Positions 40,614-52,431 of a stretch of 64,000 bases of DNA are shown here, one piece after another. A program made the translations under genes and the position numbers. Under the pieces are notes generated by a model that did not search any database, was not told the DNA's origin, and saw only the letters and a program-made list of their open reading frames with translations. The DNA is from a virus, in the IMG/VR virus record IMGVR_UViG_3300010413_000018, positions 64,001 through 128,000 of that record; one strand, 5' to 3'. Each line of letters opens with the position of its first letter. Position 1 is the first letter of the stretch.

Positions 40614-42350
40614 TTAATCCTCGTTTGATTGTTGGTGTTCTTCTTCCACGGCAGCGCGCATTGTGCGAACTGCTACCTGCCTCAGTGCTTTCACTGCACG
40701 ATCTTGATCTTCCGCAAGAGTGCGCGCTTCGTCTGCCATTATGTCAAGGTCAGAGTTTTCGTCGCGTTCATCAGTTGGATTAGCAAGCTGATGCCCGGCT
40801 AGGGTTAGTTCAAGCGGTTGCTTCGCCCAATCGTACGGAAGCGCTGGGATGGTCATTCCAAGAGCGTCAGCGAGAATGGCGCGCGCTTCGTTGATCGTCA
40901 ACACGTTGACTTTTACCAAACGTTCCATCACTTCAGAAACTATGTCTGGGTCTCGGGTGCGATTACCCGCTGACTTAAACTTCCAAAGCATGATGCCCAG
41001 TTCCGGAAGAATCTTACGATTTATGAATGCGTCAAATTCTTTACGTTCCGGTTCGAACACTTGTTCTTCAGCGAAGCGCAAGCTAGCCATCGCCGTGCTT
41101 TTATTGAAATCTCGTACGTCTCCGCGCATCAAACGTGGTAGCCTAAACGCAGAACCTATCTTATCGATGTTGCGTTCATCGTACGTTTGAAATTGACCGT
41201 CGTTCAGTTGAGTTTCTGTTAATGGTTTAAACTCAATTTTTGGTGCTGCTGCAACGCCTGAAAGTTGCTGTGCATCAGAAACGTTTGCTTCAAGAATTAG
41301 AATTTTGTGAAAGTTGCGTCGACCCTTAATTTGATCGCGAATGTAAGTTTCAATTTTTGAATGGTCATCTTTACCGAGGCGACCACCTTGCACAAGAATA
41401 GCCAACGGCGGAATAGTCTTATTTTCGAAATAGTCGAAGTTGACTTCATCAGCGGCGCGCGATCCTAATGCGGCAAGCAACACGCCTACCCAACGCGGCA
41501 TACCGTAAGCTTCGCCAGGGCGCGGTAGTTTAAAGTGCAGCATTTCAGTAGCCGGCTTATCGTTCTCTGCTTTGTTAGCCTCAAACTCATCCATGTCCTT
41601 GTATACGTTTCCGGTCTTACGCGATACTACCCGAGGGTCGCCAAACTCTTTAAAATAAACCGCCGTTCGGCTAATCACTTGAACGTAGCGCCTAAAAAAG
41701 CGGTATTGTACGATGGTTTCAGTTTGAAGTGGGCCGGACGGAACTTCATCTTCAACAGCGATAGGATCTTTATCTTGCTTGGTTAGGCGAACGTGTGTCG
41801 CCGGCACTAGCAAAGCGCGAGAAACTTTTCCTTCTTTGTTGCGAAGAATCTCCCAATACGCGTTGCCGATTGTCTCAAGATGCTGGCGTGTTTGGCGCCG
41901 TAGCGACGTGAATGACCCTTCCGGATTGATGTACTCTAAAAAGTTGCGTAGCATTAATTCTTCAAACCGCGCGCGCGTCCGTAGGCTTTTCATCTCTTCT
42001 TCAACTTCATCATCAGACGGCATGTTTTCCAGTTCGCCAGTTTTCAGCCACATTGCTTCCCGCACCTTTTCGTGCACTTCGTCGCTTTCAAAGTCAAAGA
42101 CTGGTTCTAAACGGTAGCCTAACCCGTCGATATTGGTCGAGTACGATTCGATATTTTGGTTGAGCGCACTGCTGTTTTCAACAATACGCATCAGCTTTAG
42201 TGGATCGTACGGTGGCATCAGCAAATTGTCGCTTGCTACTAAATCGCGTAGCGTGTTGCTGGTGTCATCCTGTAATGACGCTGGTTGTTCAGTGGCGCCT
42301 GCTTCGGCGACGGTTGCTTTAAAAATTGTAACTTTTTCTCTATTGTCCAT
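40614..42350 (-). CDS. Portal protein (PBSX-like)
   Basis: PPYDP; IGNAYWEILRN; EMLHFK...YGMPRW; YFENKTIP; SAFRLP; VLTINEAR. Confidence 0.92.
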   Translation of the reverse strand: MDNREKVTIFKATVAEAGATEQPASLQDDTSNTLRDLVASDNLLMPPYDPLKLMRIVENSSALNQNIESYSTNIDGLGYRLEPVFDFESDEVHEKVREAMWLKTGELENMPSDDEVEEEMKSLRTRARFEELMLRNFLEYINPEGSFTSLRRQTRQHLETIGNAYWEILRNKEGKVSRALLVPATHVRLTKQDKDPIAVEDEVPSGPLQTETIVQYRFFRRYVQVISRTAVYFKEFGDPRVVSRKTGNVYKDMDEFEANKAENDKPATEMLHFKLPRPGEAYGMPRWVGVLLAALGSRAADEVNFDYFENKTIPPLAILVQGGRLGKDDHSKIETYIRDQIKGRRNFHKILILEANVSDAQQLSGVAAAPKIEFKPLTETQLNDGQFQTYDERNIDKIGSAFRLPRLMRGDVRDFNKSTAMASLRFAEEQVFEPERKEFDAFINRKILPELGIMLWKFKSAGNRTRDPDIVSEVMERLVKVNVLTINEARAILADALGMTIPALPYDWAKQPLELTLAGHQLANPTDERDENSDLDIMADEARTLAEDQDRAVKALRQVAVRTMRAAVEEEHQQSNED

Positions 42351-42351
42351 A

Positions 42352-45105
42352 TTACCCTACCGTTTGGACGCCAATACTATTATGAGCGCCAGCTACTCTA
42401 CGCGCCAGTTCTCGCGCAAACCAGCTCGCCATCAAACGATCGCCTGTGTGTGCTTTTGGATCATAGTACAGCATTTCTTCAATCCATAGCCTAATTTGTG
42501 GGTCGGTTGCTTCTTTACCTTTACTAGGAATAATCCATCGGTGATTAGCAAATTCAGTAGCTAGAGCTTCAATACCGAACGTGGGATTAGCCTTGTTTTT
42601 TCCAGTGGTGAACGGCACTAACGGGATCAATTCTGGCCCTTGCTCTAGCACAAACTGAAGAATAAAGTCTTGGGCATTGTGCACTATAAAATCTTCAACG
42701 GTAAAACTTTCGTCTTCTTCTACAACTAAATTGTATACTGTTTGGTTGCATTGTGTGTAAGGATCTTGTTCGATACTTGGGACTTTAGCCCAAGCATGCC
42801 CATCTTCAAATAGTAGTTGGCCTCTATGGTCTTTGTATCCTTTAATTTTGTCTTGTTCCCACCACGTATGCCAATGTATGCGTTCAACGTCTAAAGTCAT
42901 CTGCTGTTTTAATTTTTTTGTAGCGCTGCGGCTCATTAATAAATTATAAATTTGGTTTCTGTTGATGACTCTACCTTCAATAATTGATGGTTGCGCGCCT
43001 CTTCTACCAATGCGTAAAGATGTTGACAGCTCAGCTTCTGATAAGGTAGTGCGGGCAAACAGCATCCAATTGCGAGAAATGCTAGTTCCGCGCATAACAA
43101 ATGATGGATGATTTGTTGTTTTGTTTATAACACTAATATTACCATCCCCTAATAACCATCCACGTACGATAGCTAGTCTAAGTTCTAACGGCCATCCTAG
43201 CCATTTTATAGGCAAACATTTTTTAGTACCAACCCCACATTTTAACGCATCAGCTAATGCGGCACTGTTGGCAATTACGCGTAGGGTGCTTGGTGTTGAA
43301 CCAACTGTTACGCGTACTTTGCAGCCAATTTTTTCTTGCACAGTTTGTTGTATAAATTGAGCTAGATGTTGTTCTTTACTGGATAAAGTCCATGTTACTT
43401 GGCTTCGTGTCGTATGTCCTTCAGCCATAAATAATCCAAGCACAACCGCAAAGTTTTCATCTATAACAATGCGTTTTGAGCAATCTCTGGTCGTTTTTCT
43501 TAATATAATTTGTGCTTTTTTCTTTGGCCATTTAGGCACCGCAATAGCTGTGTAAGCCGCTTTATCGCGAAATCCATAACTAATCCATTGTGCTTTTCCA
43601 GTTGGGCGATGCTTTCCTACATCTGGGTTTTTATAAGAACCTTTTATCCGTCCAGCTTCACGCATATAAAACCAGTGATTGGGTGTAGTTTCAACTGGTA
43701 GGCAACCTTTTCCTTGAGCAGTTACTTTTGTACGAGATTGGCCTTTTATAAGATCTTTTACTGCTCTCCAGCGATTATTATGGGTCCAAACTAATTCACC
43801 AATTTTAATATTTTCTATAGGCTTATAACCGGTTTTTGTTAGCACTAAGGTACCTTCAGGAAAACAAGAATTGTTCTCGACGCACACTATGCTACCAAAC
43901 CGACGGTGTACGTTTATAATCTTAGCCACTATTTCCGGTCCGGTCCATTTCCCAGCTTGGACTTCTACCACTTGACGAAAGTTGTTCGGATGCAAAAAGA
44001 TAGTGAATATTACCGTTTCATCAGCGCTCGCGTTGCGTTGAACCCCTAAGTCAACACCGGTTAAAAAGCCACCTTCTACACCTTCCGTTAGTTTGGCAAT
44101 TGCTTCGACAATTTCAATACGTTCGTCTACTTCTTCAACTTCGTCCAGCCAACTAGCAGGGGCAAGGTCTGGATGGTAAGCATAAAATTCTGACGCGGTA
44201 GTAGCGGTGCAGCATTTATCCCCAGCCTCTAAACACGCATCCATCCATTCTTGCTTGAATCGCGATTCTGAATCATCCCGCGCTTTACACATCATCTGCC
44301 GCGCAAATTCAGTTGGTCCAAGTTCAACGCGCTTTCTGGTAATACGATCTTGCGGCCAAGCTTCCGGCCATGCAGCGGCACCCTTTGAGTCTATTAACGG
44401 AAATCGCATGGTGTGCCAAACTGCGGTTTGTTTTTCAAATCGGTGCAACATATCGTCCGGATGCCACGCGGTACCAATAATAATCACGCGTGCATGTCGT
44501 GTTAAAGTACCAACTATAGTTGCATGATACCAGTCATACAAATCACGCCGTTGTGACGGATTCATTGTATTTTCAAAGCTTAGAATATCGTCCAAAATGG
44601 CCAAGTCGATACGTGCGCCGAGAACCTGTCCGTGGACACCGATTGCTTGTACTGAAGGATCTCTTTTCGGGCGTTCCGATCGTACGGTAATAGCCGATGA
44701 AGTCCACGGTTCTCCAGGTATCAAACGTGGAAAAATTAACCGTAGCATTTCATTGGTTTCAATATAGTTAGCAATGTTCCGTACGATTTTTTCCGCTTGT
44801 CTGAAAGTGTTCGAGATTATTGCTATTCTTATGTCTGGATTTTTTCCCAGCTCGAATAACGGCCGGCCGACTGCCATTTGGGTCGTTTTACCAGATTCGC
44901 GATGTGCGTAAAGTAGTACTCGGTCGTGAATGTCGCAGGCTTCATGCCATATTTCATGGCATGGTGCTTGAATAACGGTGTTCCCGGAAAACTCATCTTT
45001 CAAAACTAACTCAAGAAAGGTATTAATTTCAGACCGTGCAGTAACTATGCGCGCTTGTCTGGCACGTTCAGCGATTGTGAATTGGTCGGTTTGGTTTTTT
45101 TCCAT
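42352..45105 (-). CDS. terL: Terminase large subunit (intein-containing)
   Basis: Walker A RESGKTT, Walker B LAILDD, IIIGTAWH, nuclease GVDLG and HTGDRLMA; upstream of the portal. The track start is TTG 45111; ATG 45105 is preferred. Confidence 0.93.
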   Translation of the reverse strand: MEKNQTDQFTIAERARQARIVTARSEINTFLELVLKDEFSGNTVIQAPCHEIWHEACDIHDRVLLYAHRESGKTTQMAVGRPLFELGKNPDIRIAIISNTFRQAEKIVRNIANYIETNEMLRLIFPRLIPGEPWTSSAITVRSERPKRDPSVQAIGVHGQVLGARIDLAILDDILSFENTMNPSQRRDLYDWYHATIVGTLTRHARVIIIGTAWHPDDMLHRFEKQTAVWHTMRFPLIDSKGAAAWPEAWPQDRITRKRVELGPTEFARQMMCKARDDSESRFKQEWMDACLEAGDKCCTATTASEFYAYHPDLAPASWLDEVEEVDERIEIVEAIAKLTEGVEGGFLTGVDLGVQRNASADETVIFTIFLHPNNFRQVVEVQAGKWTGPEIVAKIINVHRRFGSIVCVENNSCFPEGTLVLTKTGYKPIENIKIGELVWTHNNRWRAVKDLIKGQSRTKVTAQGKGCLPVETTPNHWFYMREAGRIKGSYKNPDVGKHRPTGKAQWISYGFRDKAAYTAIAVPKWPKKKAQIILRKTTRDCSKRIVIDENFAVVLGLFMAEGHTTRSQVTWTLSSKEQHLAQFIQQTVQEKIGCKVRVTVGSTPSTLRVIANSAALADALKCGVGTKKCLPIKWLGWPLELRLAIVRGWLLGDGNISVINKTTNHPSFVMRGTSISRNWMLFARTTLSEAELSTSLRIGRRGAQPSIIEGRVINRNQIYNLLMSRSATKKLKQQMTLDVERIHWHTWWEQDKIKGYKDHRGQLLFEDGHAWAKVPSIEQDPYTQCNQTVYNLVVEEDESFTVEDFIVHNAQDFILQFVLEQGPELIPLVPFTTGKNKANPTFGIEALATEFANHRWIIPSKGKEATDPQIRLWIEEMLYYDPKAHTGDRLMASWFARELARRVAGAHNSIGVQTVG
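42676..43866 (-). mobile_element. Intein (397 aa) with LAGLIDADG homing endonuclease, in the TerL nuclease domain
   Basis: Block A CFPEGTLV, block B TTPNHWF, LGLFMAEG and RGWLLGDG endonuclease motifs, block F/G VYNLVV...FIVHN. Flanks are VENNS | AQDFIL. Confidence 0.92.
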
Positions 45106-45152
45106 GCTCAATTTTAGCCTGATTTGCCCAGATCTGCTATTTTATCACTATG
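45105..45152. promoter_or_regulatory. Divergent promoter region between terL and the plus-strand cassette
   Basis: Minus strand: TAAAAT-N5-ATG(45105). Plus strand: TGcTATTTT-N6-ATG(45150). No SD on either side. Confidence 0.4.
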
Positions 45153-45518
45153 GCACACAATATCAAAAAAGTTAACCAATGCCTACGTACCCTCAAAACC
45201 TTGATCCAAGCGGCGCCGCGCAATTCACAGCACACTTTGTATTTGCTTTGGGATGTCGCATATTACGCCTACCTTGCAGCAAAACGTGAAAAAAACGTTG
45301 AAGCTGAAATGCTCGCGGTAGCTTCCCATCTTGAAAAATTGGTTGGTGATTTACGGGATTGTGGAGTCGCTATTTCCAACGAACCTTTCATACTGAACGT
45401 TATTAGTGAACTTCATGATCGTTACGATCCACCGCCAGTCGAAATTAAATATGAGCCGGCAGCGCCAACTTTTCGCATGGGTCCAGCTGGCGCACCACGG
45501 ATTAAAAATGGACGCTGA
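45150..45518 (+). CDS. Hypothetical helical protein
   Basis: First gene of the opposite-strand cassette. Confidence 0.6.
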   Translation: MAHNIKKVNQCLRTLKTLIQAAPRNSQHTLYLLWDVAYYAYLAAKREKNVEAEMLAVASHLEKLVGDLRDCGVAISNEPFILNVISELHDRYDPPPVEIKYEPAAPTFRMGPAGAPRIKNGR

Positions 45519-45807
45519 ATTAGCTTTTTCATATGCTGAAAAAATTGATCTCGCGCTCGGAAATCTTCACAATATTGGGGTAAAAGTAAATCTACAGCAA
45601 ACACGTCGCGCATATTTAGACACTAAGCGATCCTTTCAAACAGCGCGGTGTGAACGTCGACGCCGACGAAATTTTACAAAAAATCTAGAAGCTTTTGTAT
45701 TAACCAGTAAGAAGCTATGCGAACTCGCAGAAAAAGCCGGAGAGCACCCAGAGATTCCGTTAAGCGTAAAAGCGTCTATCAATGCTATGGACGCCGCATT
45801 GAAATAG
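45508..45807 (+). CDS. Hypothetical helical protein
   Basis: Start refined to MDAELAF (45508), overlapping the upstream stop. Confidence 0.55.
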   Translation: MDAELAFSYAEKIDLALGNLHNIGVKVNLQQTRRAYLDTKRSFQTARCERRRRRNFTKNLEAFVLTSKKLCELAEKAGEHPEIPLSVKASINAMDAALK

Positions 45808-46145
45808 CCGGCCGAGACATTCGCAGTATTGTGGGTAACGTATTGCAAAAAGCAAACCGTTGCATCCACACCAGTTCACCTCGCACGCACATTGAAAGCA
45901 TCAGCAGTTTGTCTGCATTTATTGTTTCGTTGCTCAAACAAGAAGAGCTTTCTTCTAAAGATTTTGATCGGTTACAGCGCGGTATGAAGCTTATACTAGA
46001 GCACGCCGATGCAATTTTTCACGATGAATGCTGGGGTGCGCCGGTTAATTCTATGATTGAATTTACTGAAGCAATGGTTTTGCTACGAAAAGAAATCGAT
46101 ATAATTGAAACTTCACGAAAACTTTTAGAGGAAGTGGTTTTGTAG
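45717..46145 (+). CDS. Hypothetical helical protein (true start probably further downstream)
   Basis: Fills the cassette; ends EIDIIETSRKLLEEVVL. Confidence 0.5.
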   Translation: MRTRRKSRRAPRDSVKRKSVYQCYGRRIEIAGRDIRSIVGNVLQKANRCIHTSSPRTHIESISSLSAFIVSLLKQEELSSKDFDRLQRGMKLILEHADAIFHDECWGAPVNSMIEFTEAMVLLRKEIDIIETSRKLLEEVVL

Positions 46146-46480
46146 TGCAACTTTTAGAATTTCAAGCTGCAAATGCCGTCAACCCCCATATTGATAATAT
46201 GCTGCGCTTAATGAACAGCATGTGTATTGCAATGCAAAAAGCTCCCAGCGTTAGCTTATTAAAATTAAAGCGCGCGGCTATTCTACGAGTACTTGATACC
46301 GAAACGTGTGTTTGTCCTGGTGTTTTTAAATTTCGAGAATTTGCGCACGTCGCCAGCGGTTTAATTGCTGCAGCCGGGCACAGTGCGGATCCTAGCTGGG
46401 CACCACTAGTGCGCCGATTCAATGCAGAGATTGAATTATACGAAACCGCGTTAGCGTTGGTACGAGAAACGGTTGTATAA
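46145..46480 (+). CDS. Hypothetical helical protein
   Basis: TAGTG coupling with GAGG SD; ends EIELYETALALVRETVV. Confidence 0.6.
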   Translation: MQLLEFQAANAVNPHIDNMLRLMNSMCIAMQKAPSVSLLKLKRAAILRVLDTETCVCPGVFKFREFAHVASGLIAAAGHSADPSWAPLVRRFNAEIELYETALALVRETVV

Positions 46481-47152
46481 ATCACTTAAGCACAGCTGTA
46501 GAGCTTCGAGAATGCTGTCTTGATTTAAGTGAGAGCTGGAGTTGCGGTATTCAATGGGAATTTCGATGTACGACAATTTACTCGCTAGCGCTCGCGCGCG
46601 CACTTCGCTTTGATAGTAATGGCCTTCAGCTTTAAAACTATGCTGATGGGTATGAAGTAAAGCTCCACGCGTATATCCTATGAAACCACTAGTTGCGTCC
46701 TTGAATTTAGATCTGTGGCAAAAATTAAAAAGCCAGGTTCCAAGCTTACTGAGCCAGTAGCGTTTTCTGGATCCTAGATACGATCCGTGATACAAGCGTT
46801 CGCCAAATACAATATCCACGTTGGTGTGTTTTGCCATTCGTATGAAACGCGGTATTTCTGTTGGATCATGACTACCGCCAGCATCCATTTCAATAATAAA
46901 ATCCACATTATCATGCAACGCGGCTAGTAAACCGGTCGAATAAACTGCGGGCAGTCCACGCCGAGTTGGAGGCACATTAATTACTATTGCTCCAGCTTCA
47001 CGCGCTACTTCCGCTGTGTTATCTACGCTTGTATCGTTGCAGACGTAAACACAGTCTGCATGCTTAAGCGCTTCTTTTACTATTGCCCCTATACTTAACT
47101 CTTCGTCCCGACACGGTATTACTACCGCACAATACGCGTTGGATGAAATCAT
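46451..47152 (-). CDS. Glycosyltransferase family 2 (GT-A, DPM1-like)
   Basis: VVIPCRDEE, CNDTSVDNT, EMDAGGSHDP, IVFGER, DATSGF, EIPIEY. Confidence 0.85.
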   Translation of the reverse strand: MISSNAYCAVVIPCRDEELSIGAIVKEALKHADCVYVCNDTSVDNTAEVAREAGAIVINVPPTRRGLPAVYSTGLLAALHDNVDFIIEMDAGGSHDPTEIPRFIRMAKHTNVDIVFGERLYHGSYLGSRKRYWLSKLGTWLFNFCHRSKFKDATSGFIGYTRGALLHTHQHSFKAEGHYYQSEVRARALASKLSYIEIPIEYRNSSSHLNQDSILEALQLCLSDLYNRFSYQR

Positions 47153-48225
47153 TTGAGGTTCCTTATTGCTTCTTTAAGGGTAATACCTTGCTTGAATCTT
47201 GTGATGTTAGTGATCATATTCCAATGCCGTTTAACGGCTGCCATACGCGCGTCTGACGATAGCTTTAATAAGGCATCAAATTGTTCTTTGAATTCAACCG
47301 TTGAAACTACAATCAGATCAGAACAACCTGTAGCTTCTAAAGTGGTCTTTACACTGGGCTGGATAAAGTTGCTGTATAAAACTGGTAGTCCAGCGCGCCC
47401 ATTTTCAAAGAAGCGCTCCGCAACAAAATCGTTTTTGGCGTAAGCCGGATCCGTCATGTACAGTGTGCATAAATACTTGTTCAAGAGTGAAGCTACCGCG
47501 TCTTCCCGCACGCGCCCTTTAAAAGTTATGTTGGGGGCGCGTAACTGCACACGACTTCGCCGACTCCACTGACCGTAAATGTCCACCGGAATACCGGTGC
47601 CTTTAAACCAGCGGGTTAACTCTTTCATTCTACCTGGACGGTCAGACCCAAAGTACGCGACTTTGGGTATTGGATCTAAATGCACTTCTTGGCGACGTCG
47701 TTCTAATTCAACCAGTTCAAAGAAGCACTGACAGTGGGTGTAATTCACTTCACCGTAGCCAGAACTCTTACTCTTGCTGGCGCGCACTAACCGTTCGTCG
47801 ACTTGAGTCATTAAAACCCAGTCCTTATTCAGCATTGGATCGGGCAGTGCCTTTCCTTTGATTGGACTGGGTTGAAACATGAACGGTAAAGCTACGTCCC
47901 ATTGGGCGTAAACTGCCTTTCCAGAGTAGGTCGATAGTAACTGGTACGTTCGCTCGTATCCTGGAAACATTGCGTTCGACGGACCGGTTAGGATGAACGC
48001 TAGGTCAAAGTCTTGGATACTGGGAATCGACGGGATGTACGCAGTAATTCCAGACCCTGGACGCTTCAAGCTACAAGCTGTCGCTTTAGTGGCCTGGTCT
48101 ACGACAAAAACATCGCCCAGTTCGGCCAAATACTTAATCACGAAGCTTGTTATAGTACCACCACCAACCGCGCTTTCGATGTCAGTTTGGAGCGGTAGTC
48201 CGTATCTCCATAAAGCGATCTTCAC
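47149..48225 (-). CDS. GT-B glycosyltransferase resembling T4 DNA beta-glucosyltransferase
   Basis: YFGSDRPGR...VDIYG...FKGRV...TDPAYAKNDFVAERFFE matches by eye the BGT C-terminal nucleotide-sugar-binding pattern as I recall it (YGGSFRSG...FFG...FTGKI...GDKNY.DNFITLRVWE). Confidence 0.65.
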   Translation of the reverse strand: MKIALWRYGLPLQTDIESAVGGGTITSFVIKYLAELGDVFVVDQATKATACSLKRPGSGITAYIPSIPSIQDFDLAFILTGPSNAMFPGYERTYQLLSTYSGKAVYAQWDVALPFMFQPSPIKGKALPDPMLNKDWVLMTQVDERLVRASKSKSSGYGEVNYTHCQCFFELVELERRRQEVHLDPIPKVAYFGSDRPGRMKELTRWFKGTGIPVDIYGQWSRRSRVQLRAPNITFKGRVREDAVASLLNKYLCTLYMTDPAYAKNDFVAERFFENGRAGLPVLYSNFIQPSVKTTLEATGCSDLIVVSTVEFKEQFDALLKLSSDARMAAVKRHWNMITNITRFKQGITLKEAIRNLK

Positions 48226-48228
48226 CGG

Positions 48229-49485
48229 CTACTCCTTAGTTGGATCGTATTCGTAAACAACGTTGCCGTTATCATCCAGTTTAACCGGTTTCATGATACC
48301 GCCAAAAAGAGTGTACGGTGCTTGGCCCATGCGTGGATGATTCCATAGCCAGCGCATGTATTCGAACATCGACATGTCGGCGTATTTTGATCGGTTAGTA
48401 GCGGATCCGGTATTAAACCCTTCGGCTTGGCGGAACAAAAAATCTTTAAGATGCTCCATTTCGCCGGACACTTCGTCCCAACGTACTGACCCGTTTTTCT
48501 TGCACTTCAATAGCGCAACAGTAAATTGACCTTGGCTGTAATTCCAATCAGGCGGAAGTCCGCAACACGATCCGTTATGGCAACGCTCTTTGAAGTGCGC
48601 GTCTGAAACGTAAAAACGAATGCCGGCCAAGTTGGCCGCCTTTTCCATCTGATCAACGAACGGTCGTTTTAGGTTGCGATTCAAGCGTAGATAGCCACTG
48701 CCCAACGAATATTTTTTGTAAAAATCGGTGTAGTCAAAACCGGCTTGTGCCGAAATTATTGGCAAACGTTTTTGCAGTAATACCGCGCGCGTTTCATAAC
48801 AGAAAAACTCAGTACTCATAGCAGTCGCACCTGCTTCACCGGCTAGCCGAATTAATTCTGTATGAGTTGGGTCAGTAATTCCAATCATGAATGGACGCAA
48901 CCTAAGAGTGGCACCACCACAGTCGAGTTTGGCTATCTTTTCAATAGCCTTCAACCGCTCTTTTGGAGTAGGAACGCCGCGCTCAATAACTCTGGCTTTG
49001 CGTTCATCCAGCGTTATAATGCTGACTTTTACGTTCCAGTTCTTTTGGCCGCGAAACAAATCGGTGTAGCGTTCATCGTCAAGCCACCATGTCCCTTTCG
49101 TGGAAAAGCACAGCGGATAGTTCAACTCTTTGAAAAACTGGAGCAGTTCGAGGCCTACTCCGTGCTTCTTTTCAAACCAGCAAAATGGATCGGATAACCC
49201 TCCCCATTGCATTACTTTACGTGCGTCGACGTATTTACGAAATTGTCCGAGTCCGCGATTTACTTTTTCGTTCAAGAAAATCGCTTTTACCTTTTCAATG
49301 TTTACCGGTCTGACTTCACCGGCTCCATACGCTTCTTTACCACCACCGACTGAACGGCGGTAAGAAGCGAAGCAGTACAAGCATCCAAAGCTACAGTTGG
49401 AATACTGGTCAAACGTCATCGGCATTGAACAGTCAGCTACCTCAGCAGACCAGCGTGGAGAAGGATAAAACTTACCGCACGCCAT
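48229..49485 (-). CDS. Radical SAM protein (spore photoproduct lyase-like family)
   Basis: DQYSNCSFGCLYCFA (CxxxCxxC), GGLSDPF, FSTKG, IERGVPTPKERL, LRLRPF and C-terminal SCCG. Confidence 0.88.
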   Translation of the reverse strand: MACGKFYPSPRWSAEVADCSMPMTFDQYSNCSFGCLYCFASYRRSVGGGKEAYGAGEVRPVNIEKVKAIFLNEKVNRGLGQFRKYVDARKVMQWGGLSDPFCWFEKKHGVGLELLQFFKELNYPLCFSTKGTWWLDDERYTDLFRGQKNWNVKVSIITLDERKARVIERGVPTPKERLKAIEKIAKLDCGGATLRLRPFMIGITDPTHTELIRLAGEAGATAMSTEFFCYETRAVLLQKRLPIISAQAGFDYTDFYKKYSLGSGYLRLNRNLKRPFVDQMEKAANLAGIRFYVSDAHFKERCHNGSCCGLPPDWNYSQGQFTVALLKCKKNGSVRWDEVSGEMEHLKDFLFRQAEGFNTGSATNRSKYADMSMFEYMRWLWNHPRMGQAPYTLFGGIMKPVKLDDNGNVVYEYDPTKE

Positions 49486-49487
49486 GA

Positions 49488-50147
49488 TTAATTCTTCCCC
49501 AGTATTTCTGAAGCCATGTACATGGTTTTATGACCGTCGATTCCTAAGTAATCGACGATCTCTTGGCGCTCTTCTTCCGACGTGTACACGATGATAAAAC
49601 TTTGCGTGCGGTTGTCTTCGCCTTCAATAGGTGGAGGCGGTAGCGCGTCCGGAATACCGGGATCTTCGAAGTCGTCCAGCATACCTTCAAGCACGTCTTC
49701 GTGAATACCGGTTAGGCTCAAATCAAACTGAGAATCGTCCAACATGGTGACGATTTCTTTCAACATGTCTTGATCAAGGTGTGCTAATTCTGGGATGGTA
49801 TTGTCGGCTACTAAATCAGCCAACTCTGCTCGTTCATCGGCATAGTCTTGGTAGTCAACAGGTACCGATGACATACCTAACCGTTCAGCTGCCATTAAAC
49901 GACCATGTCCACGAATTATAAAGCCGGAAAGTTTGCTTACAGTGATAGGTGAGCGCCATCCATTGCCTTGAAACACTTTGGCTAGCGCGGTTACCTGATG
50001 GTCTGGGTGTACGTTTGGATTCTTTGGGTGAGGTTTCATTTCACCAATGGGTACCAACTCGTCGTGCCCACAGTAAATTTTAATTCCATCTACTTCAGCT
50101 TGTTTAACAATCGGATCGCTAGTTTCTGTTTTCTTAGATTTGCCCAT
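49488..50147 (-). CDS. ParB/Srx-like N-terminal domain protein
   Basis: PHPKNPNVH...GWRSPITV...IIRGHGRLMAA...VPVD...LVADN. Confidence 0.85.
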   Translation of the reverse strand: MGKSKKTETSDPIVKQAEVDGIKIYCGHDELVPIGEMKPHPKNPNVHPDHQVTALAKVFQGNGWRSPITVSKLSGFIIRGHGRLMAAERLGMSSVPVDYQDYADERAELADLVADNTIPELAHLDQDMLKEIVTMLDDSQFDLSLTGIHEDVLEGMLDDFEDPGIPDALPPPPIEGEDNRTQSFIIVYTSEEERQEIVDYLGIDGHKTMYMASEILGKN

Positions 50148-50358
50148 TTTCCCTCATCCTTGTAAAGACTTCTTCTACCATTTTTCGGGTTACGAAGTCG
50201 TTATCAATTTTTGTATTGCCGTACGCAAAGCTTTTCATCTGTGCGTCGCGTTCTTCTGACGTCATGGTTATCTTTTTACTTTTGTGAAGTAACCAACGAA
50301 AGCGCATGCTGGAGGCATAGCGTGAAACTGGTATTGTTGGAATGGTTGCCTCTTGCAT
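50134..50358 (-). CDS. Small hypothetical protein
   Basis: SD AAGGAAGGA before MQEAT; MTSEERDAQMKSFAYGN. Confidence 0.55.
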   Translation of the reverse strand: MQEATIPTIPVSRYASSMRFRWLLHKSKKITMTSEERDAQMKSFAYGNTKIDNDFVTRKMVEEVFTRMRENGQI

Positions 50359-50478
50359 AATCCTTCCTTTCTTACGCAAGCTTAATGTAAAAATACTAAG
50401 TAGTAAAATTTACGAATACTGGTTATTTAAAAATAAGCTAAGCAGATTGGTGGTTTGATTAGTCTGGTCAGTGAGCTG

Positions 50479-51102: not shown

Positions 51103-52431
51103 TTAGCCGTCCAAGTGAATCTTATAAAACCAAGTCATTCCGCGCTTTTCCGTGACGCCGAATGTTACTTGCTTGGGTGATGTACCGAGACCCATACGTT
51201 TCAGTACATACTGGTCGTCTGACTTAAACGTGCCGTTTGTTATGATTTCCAGGTTTCCAACTTCAAAATTCGTTATGTGGTGGAAATGTCCAAGAATAAA
51301 ATAACTGAACGGCGCTGACGTCAGCCGGTTGATAGCATGCTCAGGCGTCATGCCTTCTTCTTTTACCGCGTTGATAATTCCAGAAACCAATTCGCGCTTC
51401 ATTGATTCAACGGCGTGCATTTTTAGGGCGCGGTTAGTGATACCGTAAATTGGTGTAGCCAAATATGACGGTATGTGGTCGCCGTGCTGAAGCAGAAAGT
51501 AATACCCTTTCACGTCAACGATCTGATAGTGACTTTGCGTTTCGATATTAAACTCAAGATTGGGAATGTCCTTCAATAGCGCGGAAACATGCCGCATGCT
51601 GATGACGTCCCAGTTCGTTGAGTACGCGGAGTCCCGACCGGCCGGCGAACCGTGGTTGCCGTAAATCACGTGAACGTATACGTGCTCGTAAAAGTTGCAG
51701 AACGTCAACAGCATTTTACACACTGCTGGTGCGAATATTTCGAAGATCTGCTTATCAACTGAGCATTCAAACTCATCCATGTTGACGTTCTTATTGACCT
51801 TCTCGCCGTTTACAAGATCGCCTAGCATGAAAATGTGTAGCTCGCGAATGGGACGCCGTAAGCTATGGATTTGGCCCAGCTCGATGACCTTTCGCGTGAA
51901 TATGTCGACGCGTTTAGCAAACACGCGACTATTAAACGATTTTGTCAAAACACCTGGATGCGCGTCTGAAAAAAGTGCGACTTGAGATTCATCAGATACC
52001 GGCTTAGTTGTGAAGTCAGGTATGTGTACCAGTTCTTTGATGTTGGGGATTGAGTGTGTAAATTCAACCTGACGCGAAATAGCTGCCGCGTACAATTCGT
52101 CTCGCTTTTGTTTCTTCGGCTTTTCAAAATCACGCACCGACATTTCCACCATGATGGTGTCTTGGCGTTTGTTTTTGACCTTGGAGTATTTCAACCCTTT
52201 ACCGCGCTGAAGGCTTTTTGCAGTGCGTTGACCAGGGCGCCTAAACGGTAAGTAACCTTTTTGACGCCATGCGTTTAACGCCGCTTTATTTATACCAAAC
52301 TTCTCAGCGATCTGGGCTTTTGTCTCGGTGCCCTCCCACATTTCCCGCAATGCTTTCCACTCTACCTCGCTCTTCCCCCAATTCTCTGGAACCTGTCCGT
52401 CTTTATGTTCAAGGTTACTTTCTTCAGGCAT
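51103..52431 (-). CDS. Calcineurin-like metallophosphoesterase with N-terminal HTH
   Basis: SDAH, LGDLVNGE, GNHG, QHGD, GHFH; TKAQIAEKFGINKAALNAW HTH. Confidence 0.85.
   Translation of the reverse strand: MPEESNLEHKDGQVPENWGKSEVEWKALREMWEGTETKAQIAEKFGINKAALNAWRQKGYLPFRRPGQRTAKSLQRGKGLKYSKVKNKRQDTIMVEMSVRDFEKPKKQKRDELYAAAISRQVEFTHSIPNIKELVHIPDFTTKPVSDESQVALFSDAHPGVLTKSFNSRVFAKRVDIFTRKVIELGQIHSLRRPIRELHIFMLGDLVNGEKVNKNVNMDEFECSVDKQIFEIFAPAVCKMLLTFCNFYEHVYVHVIYGNHGSPAGRDSAYSTNWDVISMRHVSALLKDIPNLEFNIETQSHYQIVDVKGYYFLLQHGDHIPSYLATPIYGITNRALKMHAVESMKRELVSGIINAVKEEGMTPEHAINRLTSAPFSYFILGHFHHITNFEVGNLEIITNGTFKSDDQYVLKRMGLGTSPKQVTFGVTEKRGMTWFYKIHLDG

Follow-up and report, generated by a model that had tools for sequence, protein, structure and literature searches.

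How might a phage that encodes a relative of the T4 beta-glucosyltransferase (BGT), and none of the enzymes that conventionally make the acceptor base for such a transferase, come by a base to glycosylate? The question is raised by the 140,728-bp (141-kb) genome of an uncultured sediment phage (completeness rating 100%), of which a stretch of 64,000 nt, here called the window, was analysed. Positions 46451-50147 hold a hypermodification-type cassette of four tightly packed minus-strand genes: a ParB-like helper (49488..50147, 219 aa), a spore photoproduct lyase (SPL)-like radical SAM (rSAM) enzyme that we propose as the maker of the acceptor base (48229..49485, 418 aa), a T4 BGT-like GT-B, putatively a DNA glycosyltransferase (47149..48225, 358 aa, GTG start), and a soluble GT2 of the DPM1/GtrB-like GT-A type (46451..47152, 233 aa). 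The ParB-like and rSAM genes are separated by 2 nt and the rSAM and GT-B genes by 3 nt, and the GT-B and GT2 genes overlap by 4 nt. With the portal gene (40614-42350) and an intein-containing terL (42352-45111) nearby, the ORF coordinates and profile matches confirm the original prediction of four co-oriented, tightly packed genes near terL.

The conventional sources of an acceptor base are missing from this phage. No match to PF12851, PF00303, PF00145, PF18751, PF18724 or PF20691 was found in its 140,728 bp; TET/JBP, a ThyA-type hydroxymethylase, a C5-methyltransferase, a 5-hmdU kinase and an amino-acid:DNA transferase are all absent from the complete genome, in which a lineage-specific TET HMM found nothing even at E ≤ 10. 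The M6/ViI-type gene set (PF00303, PF18751 and PF18724, all without match) is not present either. The lack of a hydroxymethylase or TET/JBP gene, originally stated for the window, holds there and in the genome as a whole.

In a Foldseek search with the AF2 model of the GT-B (pLDDT 96), T4 BGT occupied ranks 1-6 (E 7e-16, TM 0.66-0.75, with 0.72 for the match at E 7e-16), and the next match stood at E 2e-8 and TM 0.48. By VIA, BGT scored Z 26.3 and T4 AGT 21.2, and non-DNA GT-B enzymes reached at most 18.2. The family profile matched BGT alone in the PDB (E 1.8e-12), aligning profile positions 56-355 with BGT residues 43-346. In this alignment an invariant WD (D110) falls on the TD(100)IRLPF of BGT, that is, on the catalytic D100, where the D100A mutant chain shows Ala, and the Arg/Glu motifs of the UDP-binding region are conserved. 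Judged by profile and predicted structure, the protein is a true distant homologue of T4 BGT, and it groups, as had been claimed, with that enzyme and not with protein or LPS glycosyltransferases. By analogy with six relatives in which its gene directly follows Tet_JBP, it may glycosylate 5-hydroxymethylpyrimidine in double-stranded DNA, flipping the base out. The fourth gene likewise encodes the GT2 that was predicted: the protein, whose sequence includes EMDAGGSHDP, matches PF00535 at 8e-15 (55.6 bits, with the cut-off at 23.3) and resembles the polyprenyl-phosphate glycosyltransferases GtrB, AglJ and PpgS. All of its 233 residues belong to the GT2 domain, leaving no membrane-spanning C-terminal extension. 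In most contexts examined the GT-B gene is followed, immediately or at a short distance, by a GT2 gene, with PF00535 listed in six; the GT2 proteins of two such loci, L045 and L050, are 39% and 36% identical to the present one.

The rSAM enzyme had been described as SPL-like, with a CxxxCxxC motif and a C-terminal CCG, and both motifs are present. The former, C31-x3-C35-x2-C38, has cysteines that are invariant or nearly so in the family and lies in a core of residues 1-295; the latter, C307-C308-G309, is part of a CxNGSCCG in a family-specific C-terminal domain (residues 296-418). Outside the cluster motif, C19, C229, C302, C307 and C308 are conserved. Within the cluster motif Y37 is nearly invariant, and F39, directly after the third cysteine, presumably takes the position of the SPL relay Tyr98, an equivalence that we assume from motif position alone and not from structural mapping. 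In SPL, Tyr98 belongs with Tyr96 to a radical relay, and Cys140 is the hydrogen donor. Radical SAM enzymes bind their [4Fe-4S] cluster through such a CxxxCxxC, set in a partial TIM barrel. The cluster motif, a PF04055 score just above the cut-off (30.3 against 29.5 bits) and top fold matches that are all rSAM enzymes place the protein in the radical SAM superfamily. Its closest structure is the SPL-type fold: with the AF2 model (pLDDT 92), SPL took Foldseek ranks 1-6 (E 6e-8 to 5e-7) and was the best solved match by VIA (Z 19.8; the rSAM enzyme ranked next scored 15.7), superposing with an rmsd of 3.0 over 260 residues at ~16% identity, with residues 1-295 only being aligned. At the sequence level the protein does not fall within SplB. 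Only sub-threshold matches were obtained to SplB-like models of NCBIfam (PA0069 and Rv2578c; accessions NF033668, with 1e-13 and 50.7 bits where 360 are required, and NF038135), and a search of the PDB with the family profile retrieved no chain of SPL at E ≤ 10. Of the more than 2000 homologues of the protein most are viral, and JGI records annotate the family as 'DNA repair photolyase'. A tblastn search of 50,697 phage records returned one unannotated metagenomic fragment only, with no similarity to gp53 of phage M6 at E ≤ 1e-3.

The product of the first gene was expected to be a ParB-domain protein, an assignment that is borne out by strong matches to phrog_620 (4e-35) and to the ParB-like N-terminal part of phrog_498 (9e-37); TIGR00180 matched weakly and Pfam gave nothing at E ≤ 0.01. 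It begins with a nucleotide-binding domain of the ParB type, in which NPN and GHGR motifs occur, and continues through an acidic linker into a small domain at the C-terminus; no HTH DNA-binding domain is evident, judged by length and alignment only. The protein is homologous to ParBs encoded next to rSAM genes (L031, 45% identity, 2e-59) and also to ParBs encoded next to TET genes (L048, 1e-9; L049, 9e-8), with which it shares the same architecture in an alignment.

The strongest indication of what the rSAM enzyme might do comes from related cassettes. A pair of BGT-like GT-B and GT2 was found in nine contexts. The slot upstream of the pair is taken by Tet_JBP, directly upstream, in six of them (preceded by a ParB-like gene in at least five) and by this rSAM in the other three (the window, L045/L046 and L026); none of the nine has both enzymes, and none has neither. 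The exchange is seen most directly between L045 and L050, which are orthologous gene by gene at 40-68% identity (PDDEXK 49%, upstream ParB 40%, SPASM rSAM 68%, a 350-aa protein of unknown function 61%, GT-B 62%, GT2 48%, downstream ParB 64%) and differ only in the slot after the upstream ParB, where L045 has the rSAM and L050 has TET. It has also happened repeatedly: rSAM and TET contexts are interleaved in the GT-B tree, so that at least three changes are needed, and the GT-B P0133, from an rSAM context, is sister to P0132, from a TET context (support 96/99). Since the rSAM takes the slot that TET/JBP holds in related phages, the cassette probably represents an undescribed oxygen-free route to the hydroxymethyl base for a T4-type DNA glucosyltransferase, as far as sequence, models and analogy can tell. 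The original proposal that the rSAM makes the acceptor is supported by this comparison, in which ParB and either TET or rSAM, never both, precede GT-B and GT2.

Beyond the GT-B contexts, the rSAM family was surveyed in 44 viral records or loci. TET was present in three, a ThyA-like gene in one and a C5-MTase in two, but most of these records are fragments, and TET or ThyA can be called absent with confidence only for the seven rated at least 90% complete, of which one has TET and none a ThyA-like gene. Of the 44, 23 have TAGT DNA glycosyltransferases and seven have AADT, and at least two proteins, P0024 and P0076, are TAGT-rSAM fusions. In at least 30 of the loci the rSAM gene has a ParB gene upstream of it, within 50 nt in 12. 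The four genes had been put forward as a set; ParB and rSAM do form a constant core, but the set of four is not fixed, the transferase being variously TAGT, AADT with a kinase, or GT-B. This is illustrated by L031/G029, the phage most closely related to ours (100% complete), with the order ParB - GATase - AADT - GNAT - P-loop kinase3 - rSAM - TerL, in a genome that lacks both TET and ThyA-like genes. A SAM synthetase gene adjoins the module in three records (L001, L002 and L006), the module often lies just upstream of terL, and SPASM and B12-binding rSAM enzymes accompany cassettes as probable tailoring enzymes. One lineage, L010/L012/L013, has TET plus rSAM, each with its own ParB; there the two may be non-redundant, with the rSAM acting downstream of TET, or with a division between oxic and anoxic conditions.

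SPL acts on DNA, and its chemistry proceeds via a thymine methyl radical. The reading that we favour, with a confidence somewhat better than even and from sequence, models and analogy taken together, is that the rSAM, aided by ParB, activates the methyl group of thymine independently of O2 and feeds the GT-B. In this scenario the four genes would constitute a post-replicative DNA hypermodification cassette, and the SPL-like rSAM, depending on help from its ParB-like partner, would act on thymine of the phage DNA. Its 5'-deoxyadenosyl radical would take a hydrogen from the C5-methyl group and generate the same allylic thymine radical as in SPL; oxidation of this radical and capture by water, the putative source of the oxygen atom, would then yield 5-hydroxymethyluracil (5hmU) or an equivalently activated 5-methylene base. 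The BGT-like GT-B would flip this base out and use a nucleotide sugar to glycosylate its hydroxymethyl group, the GT2 might add a further sugar or otherwise elaborate the glycan, and the modified DNA would be expected to resist host nucleases. We know of no precedent for rSAM hydroxylation of a DNA base, a point against this scenario, and our literature search found no paper that describes ParB-assisted, O2-free rSAM activation of the thymine methyl group.

Let us consider instead that the rSAM acts after the transferase, as a gp53-like or sugar-modifying tailoring enzyme, and that the acceptor comes from an unrecognised phage or host enzyme, or an unmodified base is glycosylated directly. The sole characterised SPL-like phage rSAM, gp53 of Pseudomonas phage M6, is indeed a tailoring isomerase of hypermodified thymine in DNA and not an acceptor maker (PMC8989533), which counts against the reading we favour; the coexistence of TET and rSAM in L010/L012/L013 and the SPASM and B12-binding enzymes around the cassettes point the same way. 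However, the rSAM is retained across transferases of differing chemistry (TAGT, BGT-like GT-B, and kinase plus AADT), so that tailoring of one particular adduct is unlikely; in GT-B contexts it excludes TET and sits in the TET slot, the near-complete rSAM genomes hardly ever offer another acceptor maker (TET in one of seven, ThyA-like genes in none), and the search of 50,697 phage records revealed no resemblance to gp53 at E ≤ 1e-3. On balance we consider a tailoring role unlikely, though worth keeping in mind.

We are decidedly doubtful that the rSAM makes an acceptor other than 5hmU from T, for example by oxidation of cytosine or a purine or by addition of a carbon unit, for the glycosyltransferases to decorate. 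Its C-terminal domain and extra cysteines would suit such a role in having no aligned counterpart in SPL, which aligned only to residues 1-295. The centring of SPL chemistry on the thymine methyl group argues against it, as do the lack of a C5-MTase to supply 5mC in the phage's own genome, the co-occurrence of the rSAM with P-loop kinase3 and AADT, two enzymes with characterised relatives that act on 5-hmdU, and its exchange with ParB-associated TET/JBP, of which the published ParB-dependent subclass oxidises thymine (PMC13229309). Very little credence, finally, is given to the idea that ParB and rSAM form an unrelated DNA-repair or processing module and that the glycosyltransferases have virion proteins or glycans of the host envelope as their targets, the genes being neighbours only through the packaging genes. 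The photolyase annotation, the likeness of the GT2 to polyprenyl-phosphate glycosyltransferases and the usual location by terL would fit it. A GT-B that is a specific T4 BGT homologue with the catalytic Asp, far outscoring protein and lipid GT-B enzymes, and whose gene directly follows Tet_JBP in relatives, would not, nor would the TAGT-rSAM fusions or a GT2 devoid of a membrane-spanning extension.

Returning to O2-free activation of thymine by the rSAM, we regard the chances as evenly poised that this virus-dominated family as a whole is an O2-independent DNA 5-methylpyrimidine hydroxylase, a ParB-aided counterpart of TET/JBP with which it has repeatedly been swapped. If so, many phage DNA glycosyltransferase clusters without a neighbouring TET or ThyS might be fed by rSAM; in a 2023 preprint, ~65% of glycosyltransferase-containing contigs had neither neighbour (bioRxiv 10.1101/2023.12.21.572611).

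Several known systems come close. T4 BGT (CAZy GT63; PDB 1qkj, 1j39, 1c3j) shares with the GT-B its fold, the catalytic Asp and the Arg/Glu motifs of the UDP region, but is only ~14-15% identical, and the GT-B comes with a GT2 partner; the likely acceptor here is 5hmU made post-replicatively, whereas that of T4 BGT is 5hmC incorporated via hm-dCTP. Phage GT-B DNA glycosyltransferases of BGT-like architecture have been described in TET clusters (bioRxiv 10.1101/2023.12.21.572611). SplB (PDB 4fhc, 4fhf) has, like the rSAM, a Tyr between the cysteines of its CxxxCxxC cluster, but the rSAM has an extra 120-residue C-terminal domain with the conserved CCG, and its gene context is modification, not repair. 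M6 gp53 is, like the rSAM, a phage SPL-like enzyme in a hypermodification cluster, and as an N-alpha-glycinylthymine isomerase (NAR 2021, PMC8989533) it sets a precedent for the action of an SPL-like rSAM on modified thymine in DNA. It acts late, however, after a ThyA-type hydroxymethylase, a 5-hmdU kinase (characterised members of this P-loop kinase family phosphorylate 5-hmdU in DNA) and a glycine:DNA transferase (PMC8989533); these upstream enzymes are absent from the present genome, and the rSAM family holds its position regardless of which kind of transferase goes with it. The closest parallel is with the ParB-dependent phage thymine dioxygenases (5mYOX, TET/JBP clade C1), whose ParB-dependent subclass oxidises thymine (PMC13229309, PNAS 2026) and around which the gene set of L031 has been reported; radical SAM enzymes do not figure in that paper. 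Their clusters, like the cassette, place a short ParB (a nucleotide-binding and a C-terminal domain, with no obvious DNA-binding domain) beside the base-activating enzyme, the ParB-like gene here ending 2 nt before the rSAM gene, and, like rSAM cassettes, have DNA transferases downstream (glycosyltransferases, or P-loop kinase, AADT and GATase). They differ in the activating enzyme itself: a 5mYOX cluster carries an Fe(II)/2-oxoglutarate, O2-dependent dioxygenase, and our phage, which has no TET/JBP (PF12851) gene, carries an unrelated SPL-like rSAM in that slot.

The four co-oriented genes of the original prediction were borne out as a minus-strand cassette by ORF coordinates, spacings and family matches. 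A ParB-like gene (49488-50147; PHROG match) is followed after a 2-nt gap by the gene for a radical SAM (rSAM) enzyme resembling spore photoproduct lyase (SPL) (48229-49485; PF04055, CxxxCxxC), after a 3-nt gap by a GT-B gene resembling that for T4 DNA beta-glucosyltransferase (BGT) (47149-48225; weak PF13524 match, fold and profile) and, with a 4-nt overlap, by a GT2 gene (46451-47152; PF00535 at 8e-15). About 1.3 kb downstream lies terL (42352-45111, minus strand), then the portal gene; the 919-aa terL product harbours an intein whose domains are Hint and a LAGLIDADG homing endonuclease, and a large ORF with Hint/LAGLIDADG also stands downstream of the cassette in a related viral locus (L048:10922-12392). 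Upstream, 51103-52431 (minus strand) encodes an Mre11/SbcD-like exonuclease (phrog_284), and relatives of the TET type described below carry Metallophos, AAA_23 (Rad50-like) and PDDEXK_15 nuclease genes ahead of the cassette in similar order. Several smaller ORFs are without family match: one of 81 aa (50134-50379, minus strand) sharing 14 nt with the start of the ParB gene, several on the plus strand between GT2 and terL (45150-46480), and a 107-aa minus-strand ORF overlapping these (46162-46485). Between 45000 and 52600, predicted promoters and terminators were no more numerous than in shuffled sequence.

Among 5.8 billion proteins, only 18 belong to this rare GT-B family. The enzyme encoded here is genuinely, if distantly, homologous to BGT and is no glycosyltransferase of the protein or LPS type. 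When its grouping was checked, BGT came out best by Foldseek, by VIA and by profile. An AF2 model built on the family alignment (pLDDT 96) had BGT at Foldseek ranks 1-6 (E 7e-16, TM about 0.72), with the rank after these at E 2e-8 and TM 0.48; VIA independently gave Z 26.3 for BGT, 21.2 for T4 alpha-glucosyltransferase and at most 18 for all other GT-B enzymes; and, of all PDB sequences, the family profile matched BGT alone (E 1.8e-12). In the alignment, the catalytic Asp100 of BGT falls on the family's invariant Asp110, a column holding Ala in the D100A mutant chain, and the Arg and Glu motifs in the C-terminal half are also kept. In most of the contexts studied, the gene for the GT2, a soluble DPM1/GtrB-like GT-A, comes shortly after that for the GT-B.

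What stands upstream of the GT-B is the central observation of this study. Across the contigs of GT-B homologues, a gene for an O2-dependent thymine dioxygenase of the TET/JBP type (Tet_JBP) lies directly upstream in six contexts (those of homologues P0130 and P0126 and of loci L047, L048, L049 and L050), preceded by a ParB-like gene in at least five of the six. In three others, namely the window, L045/L046 and L026, the rSAM family takes the place of Tet_JBP, the L045 enzyme being 38% identical to that of the window over its full length (E 1e-87). No GT-B context has both enzymes, and none has neither. Orthology between L045 and L050 extends from gene to gene through a PDDEXK nuclease (49%), the upstream ParB (40%), a SPASM rSAM (68%), a 350-aa protein (61%), GT-B (62%), GT2 (48%) and a downstream ParB (64%), and the slot behind the upstream ParB holds a 482-aa SPL-like rSAM in L045 and a 290-aa TET in L050. 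In the maximum-likelihood GT-B tree, rSAM-context and TET-context rows are intermingled, requiring at least three changes, and P0133 (rSAM) pairs with P0132 (TET) as its sister at 96/99 support; the tree therefore indicates that the exchange took place more than once. Judged from gene order, these comparisons show the rSAM in the place of the ParB-associated TET/JBP, ahead of enzymes that would need a 5-hydroxymethylpyrimidine. The SPASM rSAM (about 320 aa) and the 350-aa protein, for which neither Pfam nor PHROG gave a match, are conserved as a pair (L045:5932-7970, L050:6486-8506). They accompany the GT-B/GT2 cassette in its TET version as well as in its rSAM version and are probably a tailoring module.

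The parent IMG/VR virus record (140,728 bp, 100% complete by CheckV), of which the window is bases 64001-128000, offers no conventional alternative for making the acceptor. The search of the remaining genome called for by the original prediction yielded no TET/JBP or ThyA-like hydroxymethylase, nor any C5-methyltransferase, kinase, amino-acid:DNA transferase (AADT) or TET-associated glycosyltransferase (TAGT), and an HMM trained on the TETs of relatives gave nothing in this genome even at E<=10. A similar scarcity is seen around the rSAM family in 44 IMG/VR loci, most of them on fragmentary viral records: TET occurs in 3, a ThyA-like gene in 1 and a C5-methyltransferase in 2, and among the seven records at least 90% complete, the window's included, TET occurs in one and a ThyA-like gene in none. 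A same-strand ParB-like gene lies upstream of the rSAM in at least 30 of the 44 loci (within 50 nt in 12), and terL is often downstream of the module. The window's GT-B recurs in one locus (L026) and its GT2 in none; the remaining neighbours are genes familiar from DNA hypermodification. TAGT, reportedly defined in Iyer et al. 2013 (NAR), is present in 23 of the 44 records, usually adjacent, as counted with Pfam PF20691, and P0024 and P0076 unite it with the rSAM in one protein; further "fused" calls from a custom TAGT HMM were false, that HMM being contaminated by an rSAM fragment. AADT (PF18724) is found in 7 records, and some loci also have P-loop kinase3, GATase, GNAT, SPASM and B12-binding rSAM enzymes, a GT2-methyltransferase fusion or SAM synthetase. 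The last adjoins the ParB-rSAM module in three loci (L001:835-1887, L002 and L006), which fits a SAM-consuming reaction with heavy SAM demand. In L034 and L035 (records G032 and G033), TGA occurs in frame 12 times within the TAGT match; the codon probably specifies an amino acid in these phages, explaining why table 11 gives few ORFs there. L018:10682-12118 (minus strand) and L032:4949-6289 are second, divergent rSAM genes within their loci, that of L032 being only 17% identical to the window enzyme.

Both candidate base activators coexist in L010:5764-9949, as also in L012 and L013, in the order ParB, Tet_JBP, ParB, SPL-like rSAM, TAGT, SPASM rSAM, each behind its own ParB paralogue. Here the two might be alternatives for oxic and anoxic conditions, or else the rSAM might act downstream of TET.

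The predicted likeness of the rSAM to SPL holds at the level of fold. SPL occupied Foldseek ranks 1-6 for the AF2 model (pLDDT 92) and was the top VIA match (Z 19.8, rmsd 3.0, 260 residues), the next rSAM enzyme scoring four units lower. SPL aligns with residues 1-295 only, which include C31-x3-C35-x2-C38; the final 120 residues form a family-specific domain with a nearly invariant CCG, within CxNGSCCG. Of 33 sequences, 28-31 keep C19, C229, C307 and C308, and 23 keep C302, in addition to the SAM-cluster cysteines. The PF04055 match is barely above cut-off, the SplB-like NCBIfam models PA0069 and Rv2578c match below threshold, and neither phmmer searches with the rSAM, GT-B and GT2 nor the rSAM family profile matched any PDB sequence; because a profile-level match to SPL is absent, we call the enzyme SPL-like, not an SPL. 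The family comprises 2186 mostly viral proteins at E<=1e-3 (length ~414 aa, best matches roughly 60% identical) and is nearly missing from deposited phage genomes: against 50,697 phage records, blastn of the cassette locus found no match and tblastn of the rSAM one, to an unannotated fragment.

The ParB-like protein has strong ParB-like PHROG matches (phrog_620 at 4e-35) and no Pfam match at E<=0.01. By alignment it is homologous to the TET-adjacent ParBs, sharing a nucleotide-binding domain, a W-D helix region, an acidic linker and a small C-terminal domain. A complex prediction for rSAM and ParB from their family alignments scored 0.00 and is given no weight on either side of the binding question. 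In L005, whose contig is GC-rich, ORF calling yields what looks like a 677-aa ParB-rSAM fusion; this is an artefact, the ParB (1292-1948) being separate and in another frame.

We propose one scenario for the cassette. The phage has no other known acceptor source and no C5-methyltransferase; thymine is therefore the sole 5-methylpyrimidine available. The 5'-deoxyadenosyl radical would take a hydrogen from the thymine methyl group, leaving an allylic radical. An allylic thymine radical is an intermediate of SPL catalysis. One-electron oxidation, perhaps through the cysteines conserved in the C-terminal domain, followed by water capture, would then yield 5hmU, with ParB perhaps aiding the rSAM as it does the thymine dioxygenase 5mYOX176; the BGT-like enzyme would glycosylate the hydroxymethyl group and the GT2 lengthen the glycan. 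The cassette is probably a ParB-assisted post-replicative hypermodification system with a non-homologous, O2-independent base activator. The window is present in full in one marine sediment run and in part in another study's sediment runs, so the DNA probably came from marine sediment, a weak hint at a low-oxygen habitat.

To our knowledge, all hydroxymethyl-pyrimidine DNA arises either at the nucleotide level, through a ThyA-type hydroxymethylase, or on DNA, through an O2-dependent TET/JBP dioxygenase. If the proposal is true, an rSAM enzyme hydroxymethylating DNA would be new enzymology and, as far as we know, only the second kind installing a DNA modification. It would explain how glycosylated and amino-acid-modified thymines arise in phages of anoxic sediments, guts and rumens, and what supplies many of the orphan clusters of phage DNA glycosyltransferases without a TET or ThyS neighbour. 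It could also provide an O2-independent tool to write 5hmU into DNA; the pairing with ParB would carry the newly found ParB-activator principle beyond dioxygenases to a second, unrelated enzyme class. Our literature search, with Iyer et al. 2013 outside its scope, found no paper tying radical SAM to ParB, TAGT or phage 5hmU formation, and the two most relevant papers (PMC13229309; bioRxiv 10.1101/2023.12.21.572611) say nothing of such enzymes.

The closest relative of the window phage (locus L031, record G029, rated 100% complete; rSAM 62% and ParB 45% identical, with similar terminase, portal and head genes) tells the same story through a second cassette type, in the order ParB, GATase, AADT, GNAT, P-loop kinase3 (87 bits), rSAM, TerL, and no TET or ThyA-like gene was found in it. 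Such a set surrounds ParB-dependent thymine dioxygenases (O'Toole et al., PMC13229309), and characterised kinases of the P-loop kinase3 family phosphorylate 5-hmdU in DNA (PMC8989533). Against the proposal, M6 gp53, the sole phage rSAM of SPL-like type to have been characterised, is an isomerase with a tailoring role (PMC8989533). ParB-assisted post-replicative hypermodification is common to the ParB-dependent dioxygenase clusters and, as we propose, the window cassette, and the difference between them would lie in the base-activating enzyme, TET/JBP in the former and a non-homologous rSAM in the latter.
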